Program-made: the position numbers and the translations under genes
Shown: positions 20,612 through 64,000 of the stretch, piece by piece
Position numbering within the stretch: the stretch's first letter is position 1
How the letters are laid out: each line of letters starts with the position of its first letter
DNA from: Thermoplasmata archaeon
Lineage (GTDB): Archaea > Thermoplasmatota > Thermoplasmata > Lutacidiplasmatales > UBA184
NCBI GenBank assembly: GCA_030037815.1
Contig: JASHPZ010000022.1
Span: 1,782-65,781 of the forward strand
Length of the DNA stretch: 64,000 nucleotides
Reading direction: 5' to 3'
The notes under the pieces: generated by a model
Told to the model about the DNA's origin: nothing
Seen by the model: only the letters and a program-made list of their open reading frames with translations
The model's database searches: none

Positions 20612-20845
20612 GCGGGCGCCGGAAGGCGCTCGGTCCATAAGGGTTCGGCGCGCTCCCGCCGCAATCTCGGGCGCGGAAATTCGGCGATATACGGCGCTTG
20701 TAGCGAAGCGGACCGTGCGACTCCACGTCACGGTCCCGTCGGTTTGTCGCGTCCCCGACGACAGATGGATTATGTAGGTAGGGGTGGGTGGGCCGTGTAA
20801 GGCTCCGACCGGAACGGGACGGAGTCCAAGGAATGAGGTAAGAAC

Positions 20846-22555
20846 ATGCCGGCCCGTGTCATGAAGGACTTTCAGGCGCCCCGGGGACTGCCGCGCAAGA
20901 CCGCCTCGGTCTGCCCCGAGTGCATCAAGGTGATCCCGGCGGTCGTCCGCGAGAAGGACGGCCGGGTCATCATGGAGAAGACGTGCCGCTCGCACGGCTA
21001 CTTCTGGGACATCATCTCGAACGACGTCGACTTCTACCTCCGCATGGAGGTCTACGCGCACGACGGCGTCGGCTACGAGAACCCGTACTACGACAAGTTC
21101 ATCGGCTGCCCGACGACGTGCGGGATGTGCAGCCACCACAAGTCGCACACCGGCCTCGCGCTGGTCGACCTGACCAACCGCTGCAACCTGAAGTGCCCGG
21201 TCTGTTTCGCGAACGCCAACGCGGCCGGCTACGTCTTCGAGCCGACCCGCGAGCAGATCCACTTCATGCTGAAGACCCTCCGGGAGCAGAAGCCGGTGGG
21301 GACGGTCGCGGTCCAGTTCTCGGGCGGCGAGCCGACCCTCTCTCCGCTCTTCCTGGACGCGGTCTCGATGGCCCGTGACCTGGGCTTCAAGCAGGTCCAG
21401 GTCGCGACCAACGGGATCCGGGTCGCGAACGAGCCCGGCTTCGCCCAGCAGTGCCGGGACTCGGGGCTCCACACGCTCTACCTCCAGTTCGATGGCCTGG
21501 ACGAGGAGATCTACCGGAAGGTCCGTGGCGTGCCGCTCCTCAAGGTGAAGCAGAAGGCGATCCAGGCGGCGCGCGAGACCCACTCGCCGGCGACCGAGCT
21601 CGCCGCGGGGAAGCCCGACAAGCCGCTCTCGGTCGTGCTCGTCCCGACGCTGGTCGGCGGGTTCAACGAGAAGGAGATCTGGCCGACGGTGAAGTTCGCG
21701 ATCGACAACATCGACGTCGTCCGCGGCGTCAACTTCCAGCCGGTCGCCCTGACCGCGCGGATCCCCGACAAGGACCGGTTCCAGATGCGGTTCACCCAGT
21801 CGGACCTCGTCCGGATCCTCTGCACGGAGGGCCCGTTCGACAAGTCGGACTTCTTCCCGGTGCCGTCGGTCGCTCCGATCTCGGAGCTCGTGTCGATCAT
21901 CCACGGCGAGGAGAAGATGACCCTCACGACCCACCCCGGCTGCGGGTGCGCGACGTTCGCCTTCATCTCGAAGGACGGGCAGAAGATCACCCCGCTGCCG
22001 CGGTTCATGGACGTCGACGGGTTCTTCGAGAACGTCGAGTCGATGATCGAGAAGTACCGGGACGCGCGGTTCGCGCGGGTCCGGACGGCCGTCGCGGGCG
22101 CCCGCCTGCTCCACGACGTCGCGAAGTATTTCGACTTCTCGAAGGCGCCGGAAGGCCTGAACGAGAAGAACTGCGTCAAGGTGATTGCGGGGATCTTCAC
22201 CGAGGGCAACAAGGAGGCGCTCGCGAAGTTCACGTGGCGCACGCTCTACATCGGGAACATGCACTTCCAGGACGCGTACGACTACGACATCCAGCGCCTG
22301 ATGCGCTGCGATATCCACTACGCGGTTCCGGACGGGCGCGTCATCCCGTTCTGCTCGTACAACTCGGGCCCGATCTACCGGACGGAGGTCGAGCAGAAGT
22401 TCTCGATCCCGATCCCGGACTGGCAGGCCGCGAAGCGCTCCGGCGGCACCCCGCTCAAGACCATCGAGACGATGGGCGTGAACGGCGAGGTCGTCGTGGA
22501 CGCCGAGTACTACAAGATCCGGGCGCTCAAGGGCGCGCCGGGCATGTCGACCTAA
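20846..22555 (+). CDS. Large radical SAM enzyme with an N-terminal Cys4/rubredoxin-like ribbon and extra C-terminal Cys motifs. It may be a tetraether lipid synthase (Tes/GDGT-MAS)-like enzyme.
   Basis: CNLKCPVCF is the CxxxCxxC radical-SAM cluster motif. The N-terminus has CPECIKV...KTCRSHG. The C-terminus has HPGCGCATF and RCDIHY...FCSYNSG. The protein is 569 aa. A GAGGT ribosome-binding site lies 7 nt upstream of the ATG. Confidence 0.8.
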   Translation: MPARVMKDFQAPRGLPRKTASVCPECIKVIPAVVREKDGRVIMEKTCRSHGYFWDIISNDVDFYLRMEVYAHDGVGYENPYYDKFIGCPTTCGMCSHHKSHTGLALVDLTNRCNLKCPVCFANANAAGYVFEPTREQIHFMLKTLREQKPVGTVAVQFSGGEPTLSPLFLDAVSMARDLGFKQVQVATNGIRVANEPGFAQQCRDSGLHTLYLQFDGLDEEIYRKVRGVPLLKVKQKAIQAARETHSPATELAAGKPDKPLSVVLVPTLVGGFNEKEIWPTVKFAIDNIDVVRGVNFQPVALTARIPDKDRFQMRFTQSDLVRILCTEGPFDKSDFFPVPSVAPISELVSIIHGEEKMTLTTHPGCGCATFAFISKDGQKITPLPRFMDVDGFFENVESMIEKYRDARFARVRTAVAGARLLHDVAKYFDFSKAPEGLNEKNCVKVIAGIFTEGNKEALAKFTWRTLYIGNMHFQDAYDYDIQRLMRCDIHYAVPDGRVIPFCSYNSGPIYRTEVEQKFSIPIPDWQAAKRSGGTPLKTIETMGVNGEVVVDAEYYKIRALKGAPGMST

Positions 22556-23193: not shown

Positions 23194-24507
23194 GTGGACG
23201 CGACGACCCTCTTCCTCGTGGGCCTCTTCCTCCTGGTCGCCCTCGCGGTCCTCGCCGGCGAGATCGCGAGCCGGCTCGGCCAGGCCGCGCTGGTCGGGCA
23301 GCTCCTGGTCGGCGTGATCCTCGGCCCGAGCCTCCTCGGCGGACCGCTCGGTCTGAACACGCTCACCGCCCAGTTCGCGCCGATCAACGTCCTCGCGACG
23401 TTCCTGATCCTGATGCTGGCCGGGCTCAGCGTCACGCCCGACCAGATCCGGGCGACCGGACTCTCGGCGGGACTCCTCGGCGCAGCGATCTTCCTCGTGC
23501 CGTTCTTCGCCGGCGCGGCGCTCGTCCACGTCCTGTTCCCGACGATCCCGTGGCTGACGGGGCTGTTCATCGCGCTGACGATGTCGATCACCGCGCTCCC
23601 CGTGCTCGCGATCATGCTGCGCGAGTTCGGCCTCCTCGAGAGCCGGTTCGGGTCGTTCCTCCTGAACACCTCGGTCGTGAACGAGCTCGCCGCCGTCTCG
23701 GCGTTCGCGGTCCTCCTCCGTATCCGCGCCGGCTCCGACGCGCCCGGGGTCGACGCGGCGATCGCGATCCTGACGGTCGCCGTCTTCCTCGGGACGGTGC
23801 TGTCGATCCACTACATCCTCCGCGTCCTCCGCCACGTCCAGGTGTGGGACCGGCTGGTCGCGCGATTCCGCGCCAACTGGCGTTCGCGGGAGGCGTGGTT
23901 CGCGATCCTGATGGTGGTCGGCCTCGGCGCGGCGCTCTATTCGCAGTTCCTGGGCCTCACGTTCCTGGTCGGCGCCTTCTACGCGGGGCTCTTGATCACG
24001 CCCGAGAGCGCGGGGAAGCGCCAGCACCGCCAGATCACGCAGACGTTCAACATCCTCACCTGGGGGTTCTTCATCCCGTTCTTTTTCGCCTACGTCGGCT
24101 TCGAGATGAACCTCGAGACGCTCGGGTCGAACTGGGAGTTCCTCGCCGGGTTCATCGCGCTCGCGATCTTCGCGTTCTTCTCGAAGCTGTTCGTCGGGAC
24201 CGCGGTCACCCGCGTCCTCGGGTGGTCGCCGACCGAGTCGCTTTGCGCGGGATTCCTCGTCTCGAGCCGCGGCGCGGTCGAGCTCGCGATGGCCGTCATC
24301 CTCCTCTCGGACGGCGTGTTCACGACCCAGATCTTCACGATGGTCGCCGCGGTCGGCCTGATCACGACCCTCCTCGCCCCGATCGGCGCCCGCCCGTTCG
24401 TCCGGACGATCACGGACGAGCGGCGCCAGCAGGAGGAGGAGGCCCGGCGGTCGGCGATCGAGGTCCCGCCCGGGTTCCACCGGCTCCCGGACGACCCCGT
24501 GCCGTAG
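23194..24507 (+). CDS. Cation:proton antiporter (CPA1/CPA2 Na+/H+ exchanger family).
   Basis: GTG start. The protein has 12-13 TM segments. Family-typical GxxxG-rich helices are present (LVGQLLVGVILGPSLLG...). Confidence 0.8.
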   Translation: MDATTLFLVGLFLLVALAVLAGEIASRLGQAALVGQLLVGVILGPSLLGGPLGLNTLTAQFAPINVLATFLILMLAGLSVTPDQIRATGLSAGLLGAAIFLVPFFAGAALVHVLFPTIPWLTGLFIALTMSITALPVLAIMLREFGLLESRFGSFLLNTSVVNELAAVSAFAVLLRIRAGSDAPGVDAAIAILTVAVFLGTVLSIHYILRVLRHVQVWDRLVARFRANWRSREAWFAILMVVGLGAALYSQFLGLTFLVGAFYAGLLITPESAGKRQHRQITQTFNILTWGFFIPFFFAYVGFEMNLETLGSNWEFLAGFIALAIFAFFSKLFVGTAVTRVLGWSPTESLCAGFLVSSRGAVELAMAVILLSDGVFTTQIFTMVAAVGLITTLLAPIGARPFVRTITDERRQQEEEARRSAIEVPPGFHRLPDDPVP

Positions 24508-29774: not shown

Positions 29775-29776
29775 GC

Positions 29777-29809
29777 TCGTCAGACAACACCCCTACCTTT
29801 GTCTGACGA
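29777..29809. promoter_or_regulatory. Perfect 11-bp inverted repeat TCGTCAGACAA-N11-TTGTCTGACGA. It sits immediately upstream of the RHH gene start and is a candidate auto-operator.
   Basis: Read from the sequence (ccATGctcgTCAGACAAcacccctacctTTGTCTGACGAac). RHH proteins typically bind such inverted repeats at their own promoters. Confidence 0.5.
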
Positions 29810-29952
29810 ACGACATATCGGGTTCCGACTATATCAAATCAGGGGAGCCGCGGGGCTTCGGGATTTAATCGGGCCCATCAGCCCTCGTGTGATTCTATTC
29901 GGGAGACTGTGATTTATTTGGCTACACCCGGCAACCGACAGTAGGGAGGCCG

Positions 29953-31029
29953 CTAGAGGGGTCTCCCCCCCTCAGTTGAGGGGGGTCTGGATGCCCTCAA
30001 TCTGAGTCCTACGTATCTGCGCAGGGCCAGTGCGATCGATAGTGCCATTTCTGCATCTGGTCGCTCTACGAGTTCATCCGGCCGCTCTGGGTGGGCACCA
30101 GCAGCGAGTAAGGACTTGACCGAACCTTGGTAAGCGAGCATGGCTTGAACTAAGTCCCCGAACGCATCAGTCATCTTCCGAGCTTTCTTCTCTGCTGATC
30201 CGAATCGATCCCCGAACGCGGAGTTCGAATTTGCCCCCAACTCGCGTTCCAAGGTCTCGACGACATCTCGGGACGCCGCTATCGAGAGCTTGTACTCCCC
30301 CGAAAGGAATTGCTTGACGGCATTTCTCAAGTAGACGTCCACTTGAGCAGAATTCTCAAAATTCTCTACGGGGACCTCATAGATCAACCAGTTACCATAC
30401 CCTAGGCCAGGGAGAAGTTTCTCAACCCATTTGCTCCTCTCGATTGTCAGAGTATGCATCCTTTCGTCGTGGCTCACGACTTCCAGGTCTTCCGTGTTGA
30501 ATGGGACCAGGTACGGCATCTTCCCCACGGGAAGGGCTCCCTCGTCGAACTCGTACCGGGCGATCCCCCCAAACCTGACTTGAATCCCAAAAGAGGGTTC
30601 GTTACCGGCTCGAGCGTCCTCGAGACCCTCGAGAACCGTTGGTTGGAGCGGAAACTGGAACTCGAACTCTACTTCGTAGCCCGCGTTGAGCACAAGGTTG
30701 GAAGTCCGAAGGGTGCGGGCGTACCCCTTCGCCACTAACGGCATGTTAACGAGGGACCCCTGAGGGCCAGCGGTCCACCTCAACCAGGCATCGGCCTGAA
30801 GGACCACAAACTGGACAGACTTGGCGTCGGTTCGCTCGATCTGAACGTTCGTACCTCCACCACTCGATGAAACTTGTACCAGGACTACCGCAGAGAGTAC
30901 TGGCATGAATCCGCTGTTGCCAGTGTCGAAGGACTTGAGCTCGAGATGGAAGAAACACTGCGGATTGAGTACCATCTTCCCACCCGCCGCTCGACCTGTA
31001 ACCTCTGCAGGCTTTGAGCCCCATCCCAT
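29953..31029 (-). CDS. Island hypothetical protein A.
   Basis: The ORF is 358 aa with protein-like composition. It lies downstream of the operon after a 455-nt gap. I recognise no family. Confidence 0.45.
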   Translation of the reverse strand: MGWGSKPAEVTGRAAGGKMVLNPQCFFHLELKSFDTGNSGFMPVLSAVVLVQVSSSGGGTNVQIERTDAKSVQFVVLQADAWLRWTAGPQGSLVNMPLVAKGYARTLRTSNLVLNAGYEVEFEFQFPLQPTVLEGLEDARAGNEPSFGIQVRFGGIARYEFDEGALPVGKMPYLVPFNTEDLEVVSHDERMHTLTIERSKWVEKLLPGLGYGNWLIYEVPVENFENSAQVDVYLRNAVKQFLSGEYKLSIAASRDVVETLERELGANSNSAFGDRFGSAEKKARKMTDAFGDLVQAMLAYQGSVKSLLAAGAHPERPDELVERPDAEMALSIALALRRYVGLRLRASRPPSTEGGRPL

Positions 31030-31484
31030 ACCGAGTTCCGCTAGTTTGTGCCCAGCCTATCGGAGCTATGGAAGCGCGAGCCGACCCCAGTCCGTTGGTA
31101 AAGTTAGACCATTTGCGTCCTCCTTACGGTTGAACTGCAGAAGTTTGCCTAACGTCATGGCCGAATGGACCGCCAGATGCCGATGCTCAGAGACCTCCCG
31201 ATGCTCGGGCCACGGGTGTGACAGGCATACAATTCAGAGGATCGACCTTAGCGGCAGGTTGTCCGTTCGACCCTCCCAATGCATCTCAGGTGGCCCTCGG
31301 CTGCTACTTCGGAATCCTGCACCGCAGGGCATGAGTTCCCCGCGCGTGCGCCTGCGAGAAGACAGCGGTCGGAATCGAGTCGGCATATTCCTTAGCGAGC
31401 CCCGGGTAGTTGCGGGAGCACCGGGCCGCAAGGCCTCCTTGAGCTCAGTGTCCGTTCATGAACCGGAACGTGGTGGAACCCACC

Positions 31485-32264
31485 CTACGGCCGCCCAGGC
31501 CTCGCCGTGGGATACCAGAGCGGTGCCTGGATGGGTCGGCTTGTGCCCAGCCGTTTCCCGATTGGATAGCAAGGCATCACGGGCATCTTTTCTACGATTG
31601 CAACCATTTCGGGCGGCCAACCTCCTTCGACAATGGTCGGGAAGTGATCGCTAAGTATCCCGTATACGACCGCCGGCAGATCGAGCGGGGGCGTTGGAAC
31701 CCGCGGGACTCCAGATTTTATTTGCGACTGCCGCTGAACGCATCTAGTACCGATCGCCTGCTCGGAAATACCGCCGAAGTCTATCTGTGCATGGAAGAGC
31801 GGATGATCTCTTTGGAAGTGCTTGTCGGGGTCGAATGCCATGTCGTAGTGGAGCCCCGCAAGGACTTGGGATGGTGCCCAGCGGGCCGGTGGTAGGTCAG
31901 GGCGGTCCGTGTCCGTTCGACGATAGTGGACCCGAACGACGGACGCTATGACCTCATAATTTCCGCCAGTCGCACCCCGTGTGGACTGTCTTATCTCCTG
32001 CTCAAATTGGATCGAAATCTCGCATGTTGACTTGCCGAGGCTCTGCGGCTTGATGGGGACCTGCAAGAAATGCAACGCGCAATCTCCTCCGCACGTAGCG
32101 GTTAGACAACCGACTCTTCCCTCCGGGTCGAAGTCTACTTGAATTTCGCCTGGTGTCGAGGGTCGAGCGTTCGGCAGCAATCCGCTGAGTCGTGTCCAAA
32201 ACTCTGAGTAACGTGAGAGGAGGACTGGCTTGTCCCTGAGACTCAGCCCGCCCGTCCTAAACAT
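31485..32264 (-). CDS. Island hypothetical protein B, His-rich (HYDMAFDPDKHFQRDHPLFH). It may be a metal-dependent enzyme.
   Basis: The ORF is 259 aa and lies 16 nt downstream of the receiver-like gene, so it is probably co-transcribed. Confidence 0.45.
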   Translation of the reverse strand: MFRTGGLSLRDKPVLLSRYSEFWTRLSGLLPNARPSTPGEIQVDFDPEGRVGCLTATCGGDCALHFLQVPIKPQSLGKSTCEISIQFEQEIRQSTRGATGGNYEVIASVVRVHYRRTDTDRPDLPPARWAPSQVLAGLHYDMAFDPDKHFQRDHPLFHAQIDFGGISEQAIGTRCVQRQSQIKSGVPRVPTPPLDLPAVVYGILSDHFPTIVEGGWPPEMVAIVEKMPVMPCYPIGKRLGTSRPIQAPLWYPTARPGRP

Positions 32265-32280
32265 GAACTCAATGACCTTT

Positions 32281-33357
32281 TCACAACGTGAGCCACGGGG
32301 GGAGCCGGGCGAACTCTCGTTTTCTAATTCGCGAGCGGTCCGCGCCCAACGGTATCAGCGCCATCGGACGTACCGAGTGTCTCTCGCAAACTGGTCGCTC
32401 GGACACGATACAAAAGTACCCCGCCCCTTCATGACCCTCCGCGCAACGACAGTGCGAGATTCCCCCTAACTTGCTCTGCGCGAGGTCGTATCCGGTGCCG
32501 TGGGTCGACGACGCCGGACTCCCGGTGGCGATGATCCGATCTAACTCGCAGGTCCACCAGTAGGGCCCTGTTTCTGAGAAGGGTCCCCGATAGACCGCGT
32601 CATCGAACAATCCCCGAACTTCAGCTCGTTCATTGAACTGTTGGTCGTCGATGTCAAGGTAGGATGCGGCCGCGGTCGCATTTAGAAGAACTCCCGCGAA
32701 ATGTAGCAGCTCGTTTACAACCCAGTATCCAAGTGTCGAAGCGACGATTCGAGTCTTCCGAGCCGAATCTAGCTTCCTGCTCGCCCTCACCACGGCGACG
32801 GGAGTCTTTGGGCCCCAGCGATACCGTTGCAGTGCGAGCGCTGCTTCGGCAGGGGCCTTCAACACGCTCTTGGCAAACTGATCCATCCTCTGAGTGGACG
32901 AGAGGTTCGAATTAGCGACCAGTTGGTCGAATCCCGAGGCATACGAAATCAAGAGTTGGGGTACACGTGACGACTGCTCAGCGACGTCAATCGATATCTC
33001 CCGATCTCGACTCCTTAGAAGATATTCAGTCCTCGTCGCCGCCCCAGGTTGAAAAGTATAGACGCAGACCGGGACGCCGATTTGCTGGCAGACCGTCTGC
33101 ACGCCGTCCCGGTCAACCAGCGGGTCGTACATTGTGAGGTCATAGTCCAACACGGCGAGACTCGCCACTCTGGGGGAGCTTAGAAAACGTCGAATCTGAC
33201 TGCGAAGTCGCATATCATAGGACTGCGCCGGTTCGTTTGGCCGTCTGGGCGGGGGGACGAAGCGAGCGGCGTTGGGCGTCGTCGCAACTTGAGATTCCAG
33301 CTGCTCGTGTAGCTCTTCATAGGGCTGCGGATCATCTTCAAAGAAAACTATGCGCAT
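32281..33357 (-). CDS. Receiver-like (REC) domain protein with a C-terminal Cys/His-rich effector domain of unknown function.
   Basis: The start is taken at the internal ATG (MRIVFFEDDP...). REC-like landmarks are the acidic pair (EDD), a candidate phospho-acceptor Asp (LAVLDYDL) and a Thr (VCVYT), with a loop insertion. The C-terminal cluster is HCRCAEGHEGAGYFCIVSERPVCERH. It lies 10 nt downstream of the GHKL/HK gene. Confidence 0.5.
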   Translation of the reverse strand: MRIVFFEDDPQPYEELHEQLESQVATTPNAARFVPPPRRPNEPAQSYDMRLRSQIRRFLSSPRVASLAVLDYDLTMYDPLVDRDGVQTVCQQIGVPVCVYTFQPGAATRTEYLLRSRDREISIDVAEQSSRVPQLLISYASGFDQLVANSNLSSTQRMDQFAKSVLKAPAEAALALQRYRWGPKTPVAVVRASRKLDSARKTRIVASTLGYWVVNELLHFAGVLLNATAAASYLDIDDQQFNERAEVRGLFDDAVYRGPFSETGPYWWTCELDRIIATGSPASSTHGTGYDLAQSKLGGISHCRCAEGHEGAGYFCIVSERPVCERHSVRPMALIPLGADRSRIRKREFARLPPWLTL

Positions 33358-33367
33358 ATCCTCTGAC

Positions 33368-35623
33368 CTAAAGTGGGAAGGCAACCTCAAATGCCGTGAC
33401 AAAGCCCTCAGGAGGTGCAGCGACCCTAATCTTCCCACCGACGGCCGTAACAGCACGCTTTACGATGAACAGCCCGAGCCCCAACCCGCCGGCTAGTGGT
33501 CCTGCAAGCTCTCGGGTTGTGGATACAAATGGGTCGAAAATGTAGTCCTTGATTTCCGGCGGTATTCCTGGTCCGGTGTCAGCGACACGAAGGATGTGCT
33601 CACCCTCAGTGTTCCGGGCCTCAATTCGGATCACGCGCGTGCCATCCTCTTTTGAGTGCATTAGTGCCTTGAGGGCATTCGTATAGAGGTTCAGAACGAC
33701 TGCCGAGTAGAGACCCCCCCAGACCTTCGGCGGGCGCATCCCTTCCTCCACCTTGTTCTCGGACTGAATCCTGCGCTTCGTAGCGATGTCCGAGAAGAGT
33801 CCCACTACGTGTTCAACAAGATCATACGGGCTGAACGGCTCTGGACCGACATCTGGTAGCCTGTGGAGGAATGTCTGCGAGTAGTCCATAAATGATCTGA
33901 GGCGATAAATCGAATCCTCCACCGACGTTCGGGCTTTCTCCATAGCAGCAGCGCGTCCGTCTGACTCGGCTCGTTTAAGCGCACTGACGGAATCCCTCAA
34001 AGAAGTCATCAAGGTCTTGGTCTCATGGGTCATGAAACTCGCGAGAACTCCGAGAAGTGAAGCAGACTCGACGGCAGCCAGCGCCTTTGACCTGGCCTCG
34101 TCGGTCCGGGTGTAACGTTCGGCAAGTTCCCTGAATGCGGCAAGAACCACGGTTTTTTCCGACGGGACAATGTCTCTACTCCGCTGAACTCGGAGGGCGG
34201 CGGCCGCGAGCGATTCACGGAAATCCTTGGCCTCAGTTTCGGCCTCTTCTCGGTCAATCTCTTGAACCCCACGGGCGTCGACAACTGCAAGGAGTTCGAC
34301 GGCGGTGATTACGAGTTGACGGAGTAGTCTGAACCCCTCGTTTTGGACAAGCCCCTGCCGGTCCATGGAGGGTTGAATTCTATCGATCTGGACGGCTCCC
34401 ACGGTCGACCGCTCACGAAAAGTTTCGATCGAGACCCAGCCGAGGACTTGGTGGTTCGCCGGGACGCGAAGATACGGGCTGTAACGGCCATCCGTCTCAA
34501 AAGTCGAGTCGGCGAGTAACTCGTCAGTTACAGGCGAGACCCATCGACGGAGGTTTCTTGCCATTCGGCCGGAAAGGTAGAGCCAGTCATCCTCGGGTTC
34601 CCCGTAGGGCTTAACCCGGATGCCCCGATCAACCAATCTAACGCCGCCCTGCTCCTGGAGGTAGGCGTGCGCCCGCCTCCCATCTGCGGTCGTGAGTCCA
34701 GAGAACACACCCGAGCGGTGCGGATAGAAACCTATCTCGCCTTGGAGGGGCCCAATCAACGCCTCCAATTTCGGAATTGTAGCAGTCCACTTGGAACTGA
34801 ACCGAGTCTCTTGGGTTTCCGGATTGCGGTAAGTAACCCGGTAGGTCAGCTTGCCGCCCTTGCTTGAGAACCGAACTCTGGCCAGCCATCGGTCCACTAT
34901 CTCACTGGTGGCGGTCTGAAGTTCAGTGCCGGATCCTGGCTCTCCGAAATACACTCGTAGGCCTGGGTCCTCTTCGGTCGACGAGGACGCTCGAGCTAGC
35001 CATTCTGGAATCGCTGGAGTGACTACGTCCAAAACCTGATTTGTGACTCTAGCCAACCTGGCCGAGTCCCAGTCGTCGGCGAGTTTTCCAATGCTCAGGT
35101 GGGTGTAACTCGCGTTGTCGGGCCGTGGCGAAAGAATACGGTAGTGTACCTTGATGTCCTTCAGCTCACGTCCCGGTTTGAATTTGGCCCAATCGAAATC
35201 CGAAGACAACCGAAGACGCTTCCCCGCCTCCCCAGAATCCGCTGTTGTGTCCAAGTTGAGAGTCAGGCCGAGACGCCGGACAGCAAAGCGTCCGACTCCC
35301 TTCGACCCGGTGAGTGGGCGTTTGAAGATTCGAGACGCGTCCGAGCCAAGTTTTGACGTGGTTCCGATGCGCATCCATCCAGAGAGAAATTCCCGTTCAT
35401 TCATCCCGGTCCCGTTGTCTTGTATGTGCAACTTTGGCGACGCACCCCCCTCGAGCCACAGATAGACTTCCGTCGCATCGGCATCAAACGAATTCTTAAT
35501 CAGCTCAGAAAGCGCGGTGTTTGGATCGACAATCAGTCGCTCTCCGAGCTCAGACAGAATTTGCGCGTCACCTGAGAACGTCGCGTCAGCTTCCCGTAGA
35601 GGGGGGCCCTCCGACTGAGCCAT
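33368..35623 (-). CDS. Dual-GHKL protein: an N-terminal MORC/MutL-like GHKL ATPase plus a C-terminal histidine kinase (HisKA + HATPase_c).
   Basis: N-terminal GHKL motifs are ELIKNSFDADATEV (motif I), IQDNGTGMNEREF (motif II) and GSKGVGRFAVRRLG (motif III). The C-terminal kinase has an H-box (SFMTHETKTLMTSL), an N-box (VVLNLYTNALKA), G1 (VADTGPGIPPE), an F-box (IFDPF) and G2 (GGLGLGLFIV). The protein is 751 aa. Confidence 0.8.
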   Translation of the reverse strand: MAQSEGPPLREADATFSGDAQILSELGERLIVDPNTALSELIKNSFDADATEVYLWLEGGASPKLHIQDNGTGMNEREFLSGWMRIGTTSKLGSDASRIFKRPLTGSKGVGRFAVRRLGLTLNLDTTADSGEAGKRLRLSSDFDWAKFKPGRELKDIKVHYRILSPRPDNASYTHLSIGKLADDWDSARLARVTNQVLDVVTPAIPEWLARASSSTEEDPGLRVYFGEPGSGTELQTATSEIVDRWLARVRFSSKGGKLTYRVTYRNPETQETRFSSKWTATIPKLEALIGPLQGEIGFYPHRSGVFSGLTTADGRRAHAYLQEQGGVRLVDRGIRVKPYGEPEDDWLYLSGRMARNLRRWVSPVTDELLADSTFETDGRYSPYLRVPANHQVLGWVSIETFRERSTVGAVQIDRIQPSMDRQGLVQNEGFRLLRQLVITAVELLAVVDARGVQEIDREEAETEAKDFRESLAAAALRVQRSRDIVPSEKTVVLAAFRELAERYTRTDEARSKALAAVESASLLGVLASFMTHETKTLMTSLRDSVSALKRAESDGRAAAMEKARTSVEDSIYRLRSFMDYSQTFLHRLPDVGPEPFSPYDLVEHVVGLFSDIATKRRIQSENKVEEGMRPPKVWGGLYSAVVLNLYTNALKALMHSKEDGTRVIRIEARNTEGEHILRVADTGPGIPPEIKDYIFDPFVSTTRELAGPLAGGLGLGLFIVKRAVTAVGGKIRVAAPPEGFVTAFEVAFPL

Positions 35624-37018
35624 CTATCGGCCCGCGGATCGTGGCGACTCGGTATAGGCCGATAGAATTGAGTTCATTTGGCCCACTTCGATGCGTCTCA
35701 TGCCCCCGACCCAGGGGACGCTACCGCGAGCGAAGTTCCAAGACTTAAGGTAGTTCACCAGGCGGCTAGGGGACTGCCTCGGAGTCCCAATGTGTATCGC
35801 GTGGACGGTACCGAGGTGGACAACCCCGCTCGGATTGCTCACAACTTTGAGGCCGCGAGAACTCGAGTACGCGCTGGAATAGAGGACTTTCCCGGGGATC
35901 GGCACGGTGTAGTCGTACCAAACCGCTCGAGCCCCGCAAGTACTGTTCTCTTGAATCGATTTGGGCACCGAATCCAACCATGCCCGTACGGCAGAATCGA
36001 GCCCTGGCGAGTCCGTCCTCAAGAGCCAACACCGAAGTCCGGCACGGACGTACCTAGCCGTGAATGCAGCTCGAGTGAGAGTGGTGAAGGTGTTTGGGAG
36101 TGGCCGAAGGGTGCCCACCGCTGGCCAAACCGCGTCAAGCGGAATTCGCGCCTCAATACGTTCCGCCTCTGTCAAGACGAACCAGTTTCGTGAGCCTGGG
36201 CTCAGCCCTCTGAAGGCATACAGGTGATCCGATCGTGGCGAGTGCCCTCTCGTGGAAATCAATCGCCTCGAGCCGCCACCCTTTCTTGGGCGAAGGTCGG
36301 CGCGCAGTTTCACCAAGCTGACAGTGGAGCATGACTCGTTTTTTTCGATCAGAGTGATCCCTGCGTTCGCCCTCTTTCCGATGTCAAAATCCACCGTGGA
36401 AGGGAGCTCGAATAGTGTAACCTTCCACTTGTGTTTCAGAATGTAACTCCTTAGTGCTCGGGTAGCAGCTTTCTGGATCCAGTCAGACGGTAAGACCATG
36501 CAGACTCTCCCATCTGCCGACGTCCTCAGAGTTGCGAACCAAAGAAAGTAGCAGGCGAGGTTTCCCAGCGGGCCAGGGTCAACCCCAGCTTCCTGTTTTA
36601 TCAATCGACGTGCGCGATCACGCCACAGCGAGTCCAAGTCTTGCACTCGCATGAAGGGCGGATTTCCTATTGCTAATTCGAACTCGCCCTTCGCTTCCAG
36701 GGCGTCCCGACACCGAATCTTTGCATTCCGAGGAAGAGTGAGGGTTCGTACTTTGGGGTCCAGCTCATACCCTAGGTACGACCCATACTTTCCGTAGAGC
36801 GCGAATCGGCCGTCCCCCGCACCCAGATCGAGGACAGTGTGCGGCTTGAACCGACCTTTCGTACACAGCCGCCAAGCCGCCGAGACTACGGGATATGGAG
36901 TCACAACCTGGCACCGTCGAAGGCTCGGCAAGTTACCCCGCGTCCCGGGTCGGCTGGAAACCTGTCCGGGAATAGTCTTCACCGGAAATGGTCGGGGGTT
37001 AGACTTTGAACTGATCAT
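35624..37018 (-). CDS. N6-adenine-type DNA methyltransferase (gamma-like order: motif I precedes NPPF) with a large C-terminal presumptive target-recognition region.
   Basis: Motif I is VLDLGAGDGRF. Motif IV is IGNPPF. The protein is 464 aa. Its stop abuts the GHKL/HK start. Confidence 0.78.
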   Translation of the reverse strand: MISSKSNPRPFPVKTIPGQVSSRPGTRGNLPSLRRCQVVTPYPVVSAAWRLCTKGRFKPHTVLDLGAGDGRFALYGKYGSYLGYELDPKVRTLTLPRNAKIRCRDALEAKGEFELAIGNPPFMRVQDLDSLWRDRARRLIKQEAGVDPGPLGNLACYFLWFATLRTSADGRVCMVLPSDWIQKAATRALRSYILKHKWKVTLFELPSTVDFDIGKRANAGITLIEKNESCSTVSLVKLRADLRPRKGGGSRRLISTRGHSPRSDHLYAFRGLSPGSRNWFVLTEAERIEARIPLDAVWPAVGTLRPLPNTFTTLTRAAFTARYVRAGLRCWLLRTDSPGLDSAVRAWLDSVPKSIQENSTCGARAVWYDYTVPIPGKVLYSSAYSSSRGLKVVSNPSGVVHLGTVHAIHIGTPRQSPSRLVNYLKSWNFARGSVPWVGGMRRIEVGQMNSILSAYTESPRSAGR

Positions 37019-37168
37019 GAGCCCCGAAACCCCAAGACGCGCATCTACGTAGACTTACCGACGTCGACGTCGGGTCTCCCCTGTGAACTACATGAGCTGC
37101 CCCTCGGAACCGGAGGGTGGGCGCCCCGCAATGGGGGCCGCGGGTAGACGCGCCGCTCTGCCTGTTTG

Positions 37169-37513
37169 CTATTTACGGTGTGGGAAGTCGATTGCCTTCA
37201 GCGCCTGATTTCTGACCGATTCGGGAACGGAGCCGTCGCCCCCGATTTCTGCGAGTAGTTGGAGTCCTGCTGCTCCAGTCTTCGCCAGGGCTGTGACCGC
37301 GTGTTCTTTGACGCTGGACGGAGATTGAGGATCCCTGATGGTCTTCGATAGCGACTTTGCCAACTTGGCGGCCTCGTCAGTCTGCACCCAAGCCTCGATT
37401 GCCTCGACCAAGCCCTTGCTGAGGTCTCCCTTCCGGCCGCCGAACCGCTGGGCCACGGTAATCCGCAGCCGTTTGGCCAGTGCGTCTGGGATAACCGCGT
37501 CAATTCGAGCCAT
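37169..37513 (-). CDS. RHH (CopG/MetJ/Arc-like) transcriptional regulator with a C-terminal HEAT-like helical repeat. It is the first gene of the island operon.
   Basis: The start is taken at the internal ATG (MARIDAVIPDALAKRLRITVAQRFGGRKGDLSKGLVEAIEAW is an RHH). The longer listed start (37579) would overlap the divergent transposase start. Confidence 0.55.
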   Translation of the reverse strand: MARIDAVIPDALAKRLRITVAQRFGGRKGDLSKGLVEAIEAWVQTDEAAKLAKSLSKTIRDPQSPSSVKEHAVTALAKTGAAGLQLLAEIGGDGSVPESVRNQALKAIDFPHRK

Positions 37514-37550
37514 TGGTAATCTCTCAGAGTCACCCCATAGATGAACATTT

Positions 37551-38957
37551 GTGTCTACCCACTTATCCGAGTTGCTCATATACTTCCGTGATATGTGTGT
37601 AAGTGGTTACACACGCAATATGACGAAACTCGGCGAGGGCGATATGGTTGCACGCCTGCGGGCGTTCGAGCTCATCGCTGCTAACGAAGAGCCGATCATT
37701 CCTGTCAGCCGGTCGACCTACAGGGTGCACTCCCAATCGCGGGACAGCTACTACACGATTTCTCGTAAGCAGGGTCACTGGTGGTGTACCTGCGACGGGT
37801 TTGACGCTGCCCGGGGGCGGTGCAAACACATCTGGGCGGTCGAGATTTGGCGGGAGCCGGCGAAACACTATGTTCAGAACTCGTCCGAATCGTCTTCCCA
37901 CAAGAGTTACGGTCAGGATTGGCCCGCATACGACGCCGGCCAGCAGGATGAACACCGACTCTTCGATCGCCTACTTTGGGGACTCCTCGAAGACGTAGTC
38001 GAGCCCGTCCGCCCAGTAGGCAAGCGCGGGCGGCCTCCAATCCCGCTCCGTGTTCAGCTGCTTCACTCGATCCGGAAAGTTCACCTGAACAAGGCAGCGC
38101 GGGAGGTCAAGGGACTGCTCGACACGATCTATGCGGGCGGGCTTGGAATCGTGGAAGGGATACCAAACTACGCGACCCCATCCCGCCTTTTCAACCAGCC
38201 CTTCGTCTCAGAGATTCTTGTTGGCTTGATAGAGCGCTCTAGCCTTCCCCTGAAGGACATCGAGGAGACTCGAACTGTCGCGATCGACTCATCAGGTTTC
38301 TGCCTCACCTGCATGAGTGCCTATTGCACCGAGAAGCACGATCCGACTCGGAAGCACAAGTGGATCAAGGCTCACGTCATCATCGGGGTGAAAACTCACA
38401 TCATACTGGACGTCCGGATCACAGATGAACACGGTGCGGACTGCCCGCAGCTTATCCCGATGCTGGAGGACCTGGTTCGCCGAGGATTCCGACCCAGGAA
38501 AGTGCTCGGCGACAAGGCCTACCTGTCACGGGAGAACTACCGGGTCGCCCGGACCATCGGAGCCGACGCTTACTTTCCGTTCAAGCCGAACAGTGTCGGA
38601 ACCTCGAAAGGGAGCTGCGAGTGGGCCCGAAAGTACCACCAATTCCAACTAAAACGCGAGGAGTTCGACCACGAGTATCGCCAACGGAGCAACGTCGAGG
38701 CGGTCTTCTCCGCCATAAAGAGAAAGCTTGGTGAGCCCCTCTTCTCGAAGAACGTCCTTTCACAATTCAACGAGCTCCTCGCCAAGCTGCTCGCCTACAA
38801 CATCGGTATCGTAATCCACGAGATGCACGAGCATGGGATTGATCCCGAGGTCAACTGCCCACCGGATCCCCCCTATGTCCCACCTGTCCCGGTCTTCGAG
38901 CCCGCTCCCTGTGATTCAAATGGGGAGGTTGTGATTGAATTCGAGGTAGTATCCTAG
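37551..38957 (+). CDS. Transposase: an N-terminal SWIM zinc finger plus a DDE domain of the IS4/IS5 superfamily.
   Basis: The SWIM motif is WWCTCDGFDAARGRCKH. The DDE residues lie in AIDSSGF and LGDKAY. HEYRQRSNVEAVFSAIK matches the Y-(2)-R-(3)-E-(6)-K signature. The start is GTG. Confidence 0.8.
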   Translation: MSTHLSELLIYFRDMCVSGYTRNMTKLGEGDMVARLRAFELIAANEEPIIPVSRSTYRVHSQSRDSYYTISRKQGHWWCTCDGFDAARGRCKHIWAVEIWREPAKHYVQNSSESSSHKSYGQDWPAYDAGQQDEHRLFDRLLWGLLEDVVEPVRPVGKRGRPPIPLRVQLLHSIRKVHLNKAAREVKGLLDTIYAGGLGIVEGIPNYATPSRLFNQPFVSEILVGLIERSSLPLKDIEETRTVAIDSSGFCLTCMSAYCTEKHDPTRKHKWIKAHVIIGVKTHIILDVRITDEHGADCPQLIPMLEDLVRRGFRPRKVLGDKAYLSRENYRVARTIGADAYFPFKPNSVGTSKGSCEWARKYHQFQLKREEFDHEYRQRSNVEAVFSAIKRKLGEPLFSKNVLSQFNELLAKLLAYNIGIVIHEMHEHGIDPEVNCPPDPPYVPPVPVFEPAPCDSNGEVVIEFEVVS

Positions 38958-39067
38958 TAAAATCCCAAAGCCGGAGCCGCGGATGCGGGGGCGTCGCGCG
39001 CTCGTCGCCATCCGTACGGATCGACCCGAGCGGGGCCGCGTCCGCCGGGCCGTCCGTCTCTCGGGCG

Positions 39068-63005: not shown

Positions 63006-63079
63006 TGCCGCGGGCCGGGCTTGAACCGGCGGCTTCAAGATCTTCAGTCTTGCACTCTCCCAAACTGAGTTACCGCGGC
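63006..63079 (-). tRNA. tRNA-Phe (anticodon GAA); no CCA is encoded.
   Basis: The minus-strand read is GCCGCGGTAACTCAGTTTGGGAGAGTGCAAGACTGAAGATCTTGAAGCCGCCGGTTCAAGCCCGGCCCGCGGCA. The acceptor stem is GCCGCGG/CCGCGGC. The anticodon loop is CTGAAGA. The T-loop is GGTTCAAGCC. Coordinates are approximate by 1-2 nt. Confidence 0.8.
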
Positions 63080-63221: not shown

Positions 63222-64000
63222 GTGACCCGCACGCTCGTCGTGGCCGAGAAGTTCAACACGGCGCTCCGCATCGCGGTCGTCCTCTCCGACGGCCGGATGA
63301 AGCGGAGCCGCATCGCCGGGACGAACGTCTTCGAGTTCGAGCGGCCCGAGGGGCCGTATGCGGTCGCCGGGCTCCGCGGCCATATCGTCGAGCTCGACTA
63401 CCCGAACGAGCTCCGCGAGTGGAGCCTCGAGGGGCTGCCGCGGCTCCTCGAGACGGTCCCCGAGAAGCGGGTGACCGAGGGCGGGATCGTCGGGGCGCTC
63501 CAGTCCATCGTCCGGCAGTACGACCGCGTCATCATCGCCACCGACTTCGACCGCGAAGGGGAACTGATCGGGCTCGAGTGCCTCGAGCTCCTCCTGAAGG
63601 TCCACCCGACGATCGAGGTGAAGCGCGCGCGGTACAGCGCGCTCACCCGCGAGGCGATCTCCGACAGCTTCGCGAACCTGCAGGAACTCGACCACGCGCT
63701 CGCGGAGGCGGCCGAGGCGCGCCAGGAGATCGACCTCGTCTGGGGCGCCCTCCTCACGCGGTACCTCTCGCTGACGGCCGGCCAGCGCGGCCGCGGGTTC
63801 CTCTCGGTCGGGCGCGTGCAGACCCCGACGCTCGCCCTCCTGGTCGAACGGGACCAGGCGATCAAGGAGTTCGTCCCGTCCCCGTACTGGGAGCTGTTCG
63901 CCACCGGCGCGAAGGGCGGGGAGGAGTTCCGGCTCCACCACGCGCACGGGATCTTCGAGTCGAAGGCGGACGCCGAACGGGTCCACGCGCGCGTGCAGGG
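63222..64000 (+). CDS. topA: Type IA DNA topoisomerase (Topo I / Topo III), 3'-truncated by the window edge.
   Basis: The GTG start has GGAGG 7 nt upstream. The Toprim domain is LVVAEKFNTALRIA...IIATDFDREGELIG. The DNA-gate region is FLSVGRVQTPTLALLVERDQAIKEFVPSPYWEL. There is no N-terminal helicase domain, so it is not reverse gyrase. Confidence 0.85.
   Translation, partial: MTRTLVVAEKFNTALRIAVVLSDGRMKRSRIAGTNVFEFERPEGPYAVAGLRGHIVELDYPNELREWSLEGLPRLLETVPEKRVTEGGIVGALQSIVRQYDRVIIATDFDREGELIGLECLELLLKVHPTIEVKRARYSALTREAISDSFANLQELDHALAEAAEARQEIDLVWGALLTRYLSLTAGQRGRGFLSVGRVQTPTLALLVERDQAIKEFVPSPYWELFATGAKGGEEFRLHHAHGIFESKADAERVHARVQ

Follow-up and report, generated by a model that had tools for sequence, protein, structure and literature searches.

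A probable cargo-carrying DDE transposon of 9.1 kb in a GC-rich Thermoplasmata archaeon

The low-GC island, its genes and its boundaries

The 64,000-nt stretch of DNA analyzed here (contig JASHPZ010000022.1 of the Thermoplasmata assembly GCA_030037815.1; hereafter the window) contains near its middle a block of seven genes that differs sharply in composition from its surroundings and carries transposon-type ends at both edges. Measured in 500-nt steps, GC content falls from 0.72-0.77 to 0.53-0.62 over about 29.75-38.95 kb, with sharp edges on both sides, and the mean is 0.576 for the element against 0.718 for its flanks, a difference of 14 points. The GC content at third codon positions (GC3) lies at 0.93-0.98 in the open reading frames (ORFs) of the host and at 0.63-0.70 in all seven ORFs of the island, the two classes being fully separated. 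A transposase with SWIM and DDE_Tnp_1 domains stands at the right end, housekeeping genes are absent from the island ORFs, and an Rfam search gave no match in the island. To the left lie genes for a CdrS-like ribbon-helix-helix (RHH) protein, FtsZ and a TrmY-type methyltransferase, and to the right those for a GNAT protein, FTHFS, a second GNAT protein and an MFS transporter. The initial annotation had described a lower-GC segment of non-housekeeping genes with a transposase, set between housekeeping genes; the GC profile and the GC3 of the ORFs bear out the first of these statements, domain searches the second, and the flanking genes just listed the third.

The 10-bp sequence GGAGCCGCGG is found at 29844-29853 and, as an exact copy, at 38973-38982, and each of these two copies of the target-site duplication abuts a 15-bp terminal inverted repeat: GGCTTCGGGATTTAA on the plus strand at 29854-29868 on the left, and GGCTTTGGGATTTTA on the minus strand at 38958-38972 on the right. 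The element between the duplications spans 29854-38972 and measures 9,119 bp, with seven genes. The inverted repeats match each other at 13/15 positions and are the only two matches to their motif within the window, and together with the repeats they coincide with both GC boundaries. Elements at L002, L004, L016 and L019 (relatives are cited here as loci numbered L0xx, from other genomes or assemblies) have this motif as their left end, and in those at L002 and L004 the right end is identical to the right-hand 15-mer. As is characteristic of a unit transposon, a single pair of inverted repeats and one duplication enclose the transposase plus its passengers, both in the window and at these four loci.

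The occurrence of GGAGCCGCGG at 29,844 and 38,973 had already been noted in the initial annotation and is confirmed, together with its reading as a target-site duplication, for which the abutting inverted repeats and the relatives' own duplications now speak. The chance of such a match had been put at a few percent, somewhat more given the GC richness, which is too low, as some shared 10-mer occurs in about 10% of random pairs of 150-nt segments taken 9.1 kb apart in this window. Because of this frequency, and because a third copy of GGAGCCGCGG lies at 63438 on the minus strand (1.8 copies being expected per window), the 10-mer alone is weaker evidence than had been estimated; it is a fairly common word here, and since the initial annotation had named a common genomic word as grounds for refutation, the repeat taken alone would not have passed, to be rescued by the inverted repeats and the relatives. 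The decisive boundary evidence is that inverted repeats directly abut the 10-mer. Abutting inverted repeats that match at 12/14 or better accompany only 3 of the 19,575 direct 9-mer pairs in the window, which puts the joint chance of a repeat plus inverted repeat at the two GC edges on the order of 1e-5. Terminal inverted repeats had been suggested on either side of the transposase gene; the right one is indeed there, and the left one lies not at ~37.5 kb but at 29854, 9.1 kb away.

Mobility module, relatives and insertion site

The transposase gene (37644-38957, plus strand) encodes 437 aa as publicly called, and its frame is open back to 37551. The protein combines an N-terminal SWIM zinc finger (E=6e-5) with a DDE_Tnp_1 domain (PF01609, E=2.7e-20). 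Residues C48, C50, C60 and H62 of the SWIM motif are invariant in the family alignment, as are D215, D290 and E352 and the series Y345-R348-E352-K359 (Y-2-R-3-E-6-K) in 12 members including that of the window. Homologues of the transposase number 1,546, and the nearest are 54-60% identical; those with a named source come from Thermoplasmata metagenome-assembled genomes, and none of its relatives was found on viral contigs. Divergent from the transposase gene is a gene of 136 aa (37169-37579, minus strand) with an RHH_6 match below the cutoff (E=3.7e-4), homologues of which, 51-90% identical, stand beside the transposase in L002, L004, L010, L012, L013 and L017. As this gene is better conserved than the transposase in these six relatives, it is treated as core rather than as cargo, and would be the accessory gene of the mobility module. 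Homologues are also present in L095 and L096, and a metagenome scan gave only two short contigs.

Inside the inverted repeats, both ends carry a pair of TGTGATT motifs on the plus strand. The left pair (29888-29894 and 29908-29914, 20 bp apart) keeps its positions in L002 and L004, and the right pair (38910-38916 and 38930-38936), which is embedded in the 3'-terminal part of the transposase gene, is kept in L002, L004 and L090. Counted from the terminus, the motifs lie at about 35-41 and 55-61 nt, and they belong to a direct repeat, D4, with 78% identity over 32 nt. Left and right pairs point the same way in absolute terms, which makes the ends asymmetric. The motif reads TGTGAT at the left end and, read inward, ATCACA at the right end in the window, L002, L004 and L090; in L016 and L019 it is TGGGAA at the left end and of the TCCCA type at the right, TTCCCA when again read inward. 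This co-variation between left and right ends within each lineage is as expected of a protein-binding site, which the subterminal repeats are predicted to be. L016 and L019 have no homologue of the 136-aa protein and carry in its place an ORF of 58-62 aa, which hints that the accessory protein, or the N-terminus of the transposase, may read the subterminal repeats.

In relatives, GGCTTTGGGATTT ends enclose whole gene blocks, and each block has a 9-bp duplication of its own. When 78 genome loci were scanned, without a preset motif, for an exact duplication abutting inverted repeats around the transposase gene, 14 elements of 0.9-10.3 kb emerged that have exact duplications of 9 bp and whose termini are of the GGCTTTG type or differ from it by one base; matches with non-family termini at L070, L037 and L061 were disregarded as likely due to chance. 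The element at L002 (9,295 bp, duplication CCGCTGGGA) has the same 15-mer ends and a transposase 56% identical to that of the window, the one at L004 measures 3,649 bp (duplication GCGTAACAC), and those at L016 and L019 measure 10,309 and 8,959 bp. Elements of about 58% GC are seen in four hosts of 70-72% GC, within contigs of up to ~1 Mb from other studies, and this constant foreign composition indicates continuing horizontal circulation of the family rather than old, ameliorating insertions. The cargo of the relatives appears to be of the defense type and interchangeable, judging by domain matches: Kiwa KwaA (E=7e-21) and KwaB (E=4e-8) in L089, a DndC-like protein (E=2e-51) and a GHKL protein in L088, a type IV restriction-like protein (E=2e-14) and an 885-aa GHKL protein in L090, and a type II methylase (E=5e-149) in L002. 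A second, more distant member lies at 4317-11332 of L004, with a transposase 41% identical, ends GGCTTTGGGAC and a cargo of ParB_N-, HNH- and MUG113-domain genes; two of these genes stand downstream of the transposase, which thus need not be the last gene of an element. The JGI metagenomes do not contain the exact 30-nt left end of the window element.

The insertion site can be compared with that of a distant relative, L009, in which the RHH gene lies about 150 bp from a GNAT gene that is followed by FTHFS, a second GNAT gene and an MFS gene. This is the gene order of the window minus the island. The L009 RHH protein is identical to that of the window at 35/38 N-terminal residues, and the RHH-proximal spacer, with its GTCAGACAA...TTGTCTGAC palindrome, is kept in L009 almost to the point of insertion. 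It follows from this gene order that the flanking genes are ancestral neighbors between which the island was inserted; the empty site that the initial annotation proposed to look for in related genomes is therefore found, in a distant relative. The reconstructed sequence of the empty site reads ...TATATCAAATCAGGGGAGCCGCGGATGCGGGGGCGTC.... An empty site from the same species was not found in the collections searched, where the best GNAT homologue is 51% identical, and since no genome of the same species is available there, the empty site is demonstrable by gene order only; another GNAT homologue, P0135, has a different neighborhood and is uninformative in this respect. Neither the RHH protein of the flank nor the transposase ORF in its long form gave a match in look-ups by exact sequence, start codons being called differently. 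The palindrome itself, GTCAGACAA(N12-13)TTGTCTGAC at 29781-29813 of the window, immediately precedes the start codon of the cdrS-like RHH gene, which adjoins the FtsZ gene, and recurs in L009 at about 122-154; it is probably the autoregulatory operator of the RHH protein.

Several other explanations of the block have to be weighed. Only the right-hand 1.8 kb might be mobile, as an insertion sequence made up of the accessory gene and the transposase beside an unrelated low-GC island, with the left end and the repeat there by coincidence. These two genes do form a compact module at one edge, the 10-mer is common, and a repeat with an inverted repeat arises by chance 9 times at a threshold of 11/14. 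No second left end was found inside the island, however, even near 37.0-37.2 kb and with up to 5 mismatches allowed, which argues that the whole island is the transposon; the sole left end, at 29854, sits on the GC boundary and is accompanied by the TGTGATT pair of the family, and in relatives it is likewise the whole block that carries a duplication of its own, all of which leaves such an insertion sequence very unlikely indeed. Integration by a site-specific recombinase, with the 10-mer as the remnant of an att core, had been the second possibility named in the initial annotation, and islands with att sites do typically have direct repeats at their edges. This reading of the 10-mer was excluded, and its probability is close to nil: searches with Pfam and NCBIfam found no integrase or recombinase domain, of the tyrosine or the serine type, in any island ORF, there is no tRNA or tmRNA gene nearby (the sole tRNA gene lies at 63006, and there is none within 24 kb), and the repeats abut the inverted repeats of a DDE transposase family.

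It has also to be considered that the block is a chimera, assembled or binned with DNA of another organism, as the genome is metagenome-assembled, the 14-point difference in GC is extreme, and a separate public assembly of run SRR21679853 gives the block (window 29821-39009) as a contig of its own, L001, of 9,189 bp. This contig, however, reads through both junctions, reaching 33 and 37 bp beyond the element into the GC-rich flanks with 100% identity at both, which argues against a chimera; the junctions moreover carry the exact duplication and inverted-repeat structure of transposition, and in the relatives an equal GC contrast is met within contigs from other studies that reach ~1 Mb, so that we consider this explanation extremely unlikely. 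Slightly more weight, still within the range of the very unlikely, can be given to a fixed relic, that is, a transposase co-opted as part or as regulator of the GHKL defense genes linked to it, in a block that it no longer moves. GHKL genes stand beside this transposase clade in L002, L012, L019 and L020, and in four genomes that share a locus the transposases diverge (52-66%) about as much as the host AspRS and ABC proteins (58-63%). Against this, the duplications contain no mismatch, genomes that share the locus have duplications of different sequence, the cargo changes wholly from one relative to another (Kiwa, DndC-like, type IV-like), conservation extends to the ends and to the catalytic residues, the GC content of the element is foreign in every host, and the cassette exists without a transposase in L091.

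Some observations nevertheless count against a single mobile transposon. The duplication is 10 bp long in the window and 9 bp in the relatives, and a 9-bp register requires one extra base at one terminus; the transposase scores 124.9 bits with the NCBIfam IS5 model NF033579, under the cutoff of 140, compared with 268.8 bits for the IS903-type enzyme from L094; and no second copy of the exact element was found, so that the mobility of this particular copy is something we infer rather than observe. On balance, it is very likely that 29854-38972 is a single 9,119-bp DDE transposon with cargo, recently inserted into the ~160-bp spacer between the cdrS-like RHH and GNAT genes of a GC-rich archaeon. 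The initial proposal of a horizontally acquired island mobilized by the SWIM-DDE transposase is in keeping with this, with the ends, the composition, the relatives and the empty site all in its support. The contig L001 ends close to both junctions, where the assembly graph or the coverage breaks; this could reflect a presence/absence polymorphism or a higher coverage of the lower-GC element, and the ends lie 3 and 7 nt past those predicted for a k=31 bubble between filled and empty sites.

The closest known counterpart of the element is found in the IS5 family. IS903 is a one-gene insertion sequence of about 1 kb, whereas the element of the window measures 9.1 kb, carries six passenger or accessory genes, including the accessory gene of the mobility module, encodes a 437-aa transposase with a SWIM domain, has asymmetric ends and resides in an archaeon. 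In common with IS903, its transposase has a DDE_Tnp_1 domain, NF033579 as the best NCBIfam model, and the DDE triad with the Y-2-R-3-E-6-K signature; the window and IS903-type enzymes align over 231 residues with 22% identity (E=1e-6). The termini begin with GGCTTCG and GGCTTTG in the window and with GGCTTTG in the relatives, as do IS903-type ends (GGCTTTGTTGAATAAATC), and the duplication of 9 bp reported for IS903 (PMC2577343 Table 1) is that of 14 relatives, the window having 10 bp. To judge from the best model, the alignment, the common terminus and the 9-bp duplication of the relatives, the element is a distant relative of the IS903 group. From anatomy and conservation one would predict that the transposase binds the ends, cuts the target with a stagger of 9-10 bp and joins the element ends to it, after which repair of the gaps would produce the flanking duplication, here of 10 bp of target sequence; the asymmetric subterminal repeats, as predicted binding sites, would tell the left end from the right.

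The best-studied cargo transposons, which are Tn7-like, use a multi-protein machine, and Tn7 itself generates a duplication of 5 bp. The window element differs from them in having a single IS5-type DDE enzyme with a small RHH-like protein and a duplication of 9-10 bp in its family, and no homologue of TnsA, TnsB, TnsC or a target selector was seen in domain searches of the element. Tn7-like transposons with defense cargo have been reported (PMC8649781), from archaea as well (bioRxiv 10.1101/2025.07.27.667033), and the likeness lies in a cargo dominated by defense systems, asymmetric ends with multiple subterminal repeats and repeated insertion at a conserved 'safe' site of the chromosome. Unit transposons with passenger genes and defense genes on mobile elements are both known, and the element is a variant of these; the family of cargo carriers to which it belongs is apparently undescribed, but may already be catalogued in ISfinder. 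In this family one IS5-type transposase and a small helper gene appear to move 2-9 kb of interchangeable defense cargo among GC-rich Thermoplasmata. To our knowledge, few mobile elements that move defense genes between archaea have been described. The clear boundaries make the cargo easy to delimit and offer a handle on archaeal defense systems, which can be sought by reading between GGCTTTGGGATTT ends, and, as a compact tool, the element is also a candidate for delivering genes to archaea.

The cargo cassette

Four of the cargo genes, all on the minus strand, form a conserved cassette. The first (35624-37018) encodes a predicted Eco57I-type N6-adenine DNA methyltransferase of 464 aa (PF07669, E=3.9e-10; PADLOC MTase_II, E=4e-14), the translation of which contains motif I as LDLGAGDG and motif IV as GNPPF. 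A weak match of this protein to the mad2 model of the MADS system was set aside, as it is inferior (E=2.7e-8) to the match with MTase_II (E=4.3e-14) and no other mad model was matched. The methyltransferase gene lies upstream of the second gene (33368-35623) and abuts its start. The 751-aa product of the latter is a paraMORC-histidine-kinase protein, in which an N-terminal GHKL ATPase of the MutL/MORC-like kind is fused to a C-terminal histidine-kinase core (HATPase_c_3 at residues 34-133 and HATPase_c at 642-750). Comparison with the Protein Data Bank (PDB) agrees with this division, histidine kinases aligning at 506-750, over the DHp and CA domains, and MutL at 30-133; the H-box reads MTHETKTL in the translation, and the protein is soluble. 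Full-length homologues of the kinase are found in L002 (26% identity) and L091 (41%).

The third gene (32281-33357), whose start was set from P0181 and from the gene call of L001, encodes a receiver-like protein of 358 aa with a (beta-alpha)5 N-terminal domain and a conserved Cys/His-rich C-terminal domain. The (beta-alpha)5 domain is seen in an AlphaFold model (pLDDT 79.8, pTM 0.84), the fold matches of which in the PDB are weak and mostly to receiver domains of response regulators. The family comprises 557 cluster representatives, and D8 and D71, which terminate strands 1 and 3, do not vary among 42 diverse members; neither Pfam nor fold search gave an output domain known to bind DNA. The fourth gene (31485-32264) encodes a protein of 259 aa, a candidate effector partner, with a 29% identical homologue at the same position in L091-L093 and with motifs that, judged by eye, are common to a 251-aa protein of L002; it matches no family, and its single-sequence AlphaFold model is unusable (pLDDT 37.7). 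Outside the cassette stands an orphan cargo gene (29953-31029, minus strand, GC3 0.64) for another protein of 358 aa, which has no match in Pfam, NCBIfam, PADLOC, PHROGs or PDB sequences and no homologue in L002 or L091. For the three cargo proteins without a family, searches of PDB sequences gave nothing meaningful.

L091 has all four genes in unchanged order, with 39, 41, 36 and 29% identity and without the transposase or the transposon ends, and L002 has them in a rearranged one. The four thus make up a self-contained, conserved unit. A gene with a SIR2_2 domain adjoins the transposon-free cassette in L091 (7715-8563) and L092 (3049-4056), which suggests a defense-island context independent of the transposon.

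The architecture recalls a system described in bacteria, in which HEF_HK kinases and Response_reg_2 proteins are paired and linked, by computational prediction, to restriction-modification and paraMORC ATPases, with methylases that are mostly of the C5 type (Bellieny-Rabelo et al. 2021, PMC8011034). In both cases, a soluble kinase has an N-terminal HATPase_c_3 domain, a DHp domain with a His-Glu H-box and a C-terminal HATPase_c domain, a divergent receiver-like protein is encoded directly after it, and the gene for a DNA methyltransferase precedes that of the kinase. The cassette of the window differs in its N6-adenine, Eco57I-type methylase, its archaeal host, its transposon and its conserved fourth gene. 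HEF_HK (PF19191) gave no match at E<=10 with the kinases of the window, L002 and L091, and Response_reg_2 (PF19192) was matched by 1/9 relatives at E=0.29 and by 0/42 at E<=0.01; by these profile comparisons the cassette resembles that system in architecture but is not one of its members. A related logic is known from Detocs-type systems, where a cytoplasmic sensor kinase phosphorylates, upon infection, a receiver fused to an effector. The cassette has the same logic but differs from these in its sensor and effector domains and in its added methyltransferase, and no PADLOC match to such models was obtained.

The cassette probably guards against foreign DNA. The methylase would mark the DNA of the host, the MORC-like N-terminal domain of the kinase would sense foreign or unmodified DNA, and the kinase would then phosphorylate Asp71 of the receiver-like protein, the output domain of which, perhaps together with the 259-aa protein, might trigger a restriction-like or abortive response. 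Not everything in the cargo agrees with such a role: the receiver fold rests on a model whose PDB matches are weak, none reaching E<=1e-3, the cargo yielded neither a nuclease nor any other effector domain, and apart from the methylase and the GHKL N-terminal domain nothing in it matches a PADLOC system model. A classical type II restriction-modification system would pair the methylase with an identifiable restriction endonuclease; among models of restriction enzymes, only the GHKL N-terminal domain of BbrUII/HgiDII-like enzymes is matched, the methylase being present and a nuclease domain not found.

The kinase/receiver pair could alternatively be a regulatory two-component system that tunes the expression or activity of a restriction-modification system and is not itself the sensor or effector of immunity, a speculation that has been offered for the bacterial HEF_HK/Response_reg_2 pairs (PMC8011034) and with which the lack of a nuclease domain in the cassette agrees. 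The cassette, however, contains no recognizable restriction enzyme to be regulated, the receiver-like protein is without a DNA-binding output domain known to Pfam or fold search, and the four genes travel as a self-contained unit; we regard a purely regulatory role as unlikely, while giving it appreciable weight. With the guarding role kept as the preferred reading, the cassette is a concrete example of a methylase-linked kinase/receiver system that is open to functional testing.

Target sites and stacking of family members

In four Thermoplasmata genomes (L012, L016, L019 and L061), a transposase end lies directly upstream of the gene for the thermosome (Cpn60_TCP1). The ends concerned map to 9810-9864 in L088, ~11965-12021 in L089, 11457-11514 in L090 and ~11057-11113 in L061. 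At these loci the downstream genes are conserved and the cargo is different, and for L016/L089 and L019/L088, the two with both ends mapped, the duplications contain no mismatch and have different sequences. The region upstream of the thermosome gene looks like a recurrent hot spot of insertion.

In most of the archaeal elements, that of the window among them, one side of the duplication has a TATA-like box whose start is 4-9 nt away from it. In the window it is TTTGATATAG (29829-29838, minus strand), beside the left duplication, and equivalent flanks are found at L016, L019, L090, L061, L033, L032, L029, L064, L024 and L069. Against a null of random host positions that include coding DNA, P is 0.006 for the window and the combined sum of log10 P is -15.4. 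IS903 is known to prefer AT-rich flanks of its duplication, with the consensus WTTYA-N9-TRAAW (PMC2577343), and the adjacency of TATA-like boxes may reflect a similar preference.

Back-to-back ends of the form CAAAGCC-N9-GGCTTTG occur 9 times in 8 loci, compared with an expectation of ~0.015 for exact matches. They lie in L004 (4301-4323 and 11326-11348), L014 (11331), L016 (1200), L019 (837), L023 (1185), L043 (3365), L062 (1909) and L080 (902). Exact matches alone were used, a search with one mismatch having proved as noisy as its control (17 vs 13). In L004, three different elements are chained by one 9-mer, GCGTAACAC. Ends that stand back to back one duplication length apart imply that members stack beside resident ends, and members of the family thus appear to insert precisely beside such ends and to build up arrays.

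Taken together, these patterns raise the possibility of an undescribed, mainly Thermoplasmata family of cargo transposons, with asymmetric ends, a small accessory protein of the RHH-like type and a SWIM-DDE enzyme of IS903 descent, which would choose safe targets at a short fixed distance upstream of TATA boxes, repeatedly at the thermosome promoter, and directly next to resident ends. The resulting stacks of exchangeable defense cargo (Kiwa, DndC-like, restriction-like and a new archaeal paraMORC-kinase/receiver/methylase system) would amount to a transposon-driven assembly of archaeal defense islands, a proposal to which we would give somewhat less than even chances. If confirmed, a preference for sites next to TATA boxes and resident ends would explain both the sparing of the host and the growth of defense islands. 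Such apparent targeting and stacking at the level of the family raise the interest of the element and may matter more than the island itself.

Elsewhere in the window, milder dips in GC content, to 0.64-0.69, are present at 20750-22500 and 23500-24250. The GC3 of the ORFs there is host-like (0.96-0.97), and these dips are therefore an effect of amino-acid composition and not foreign DNA.

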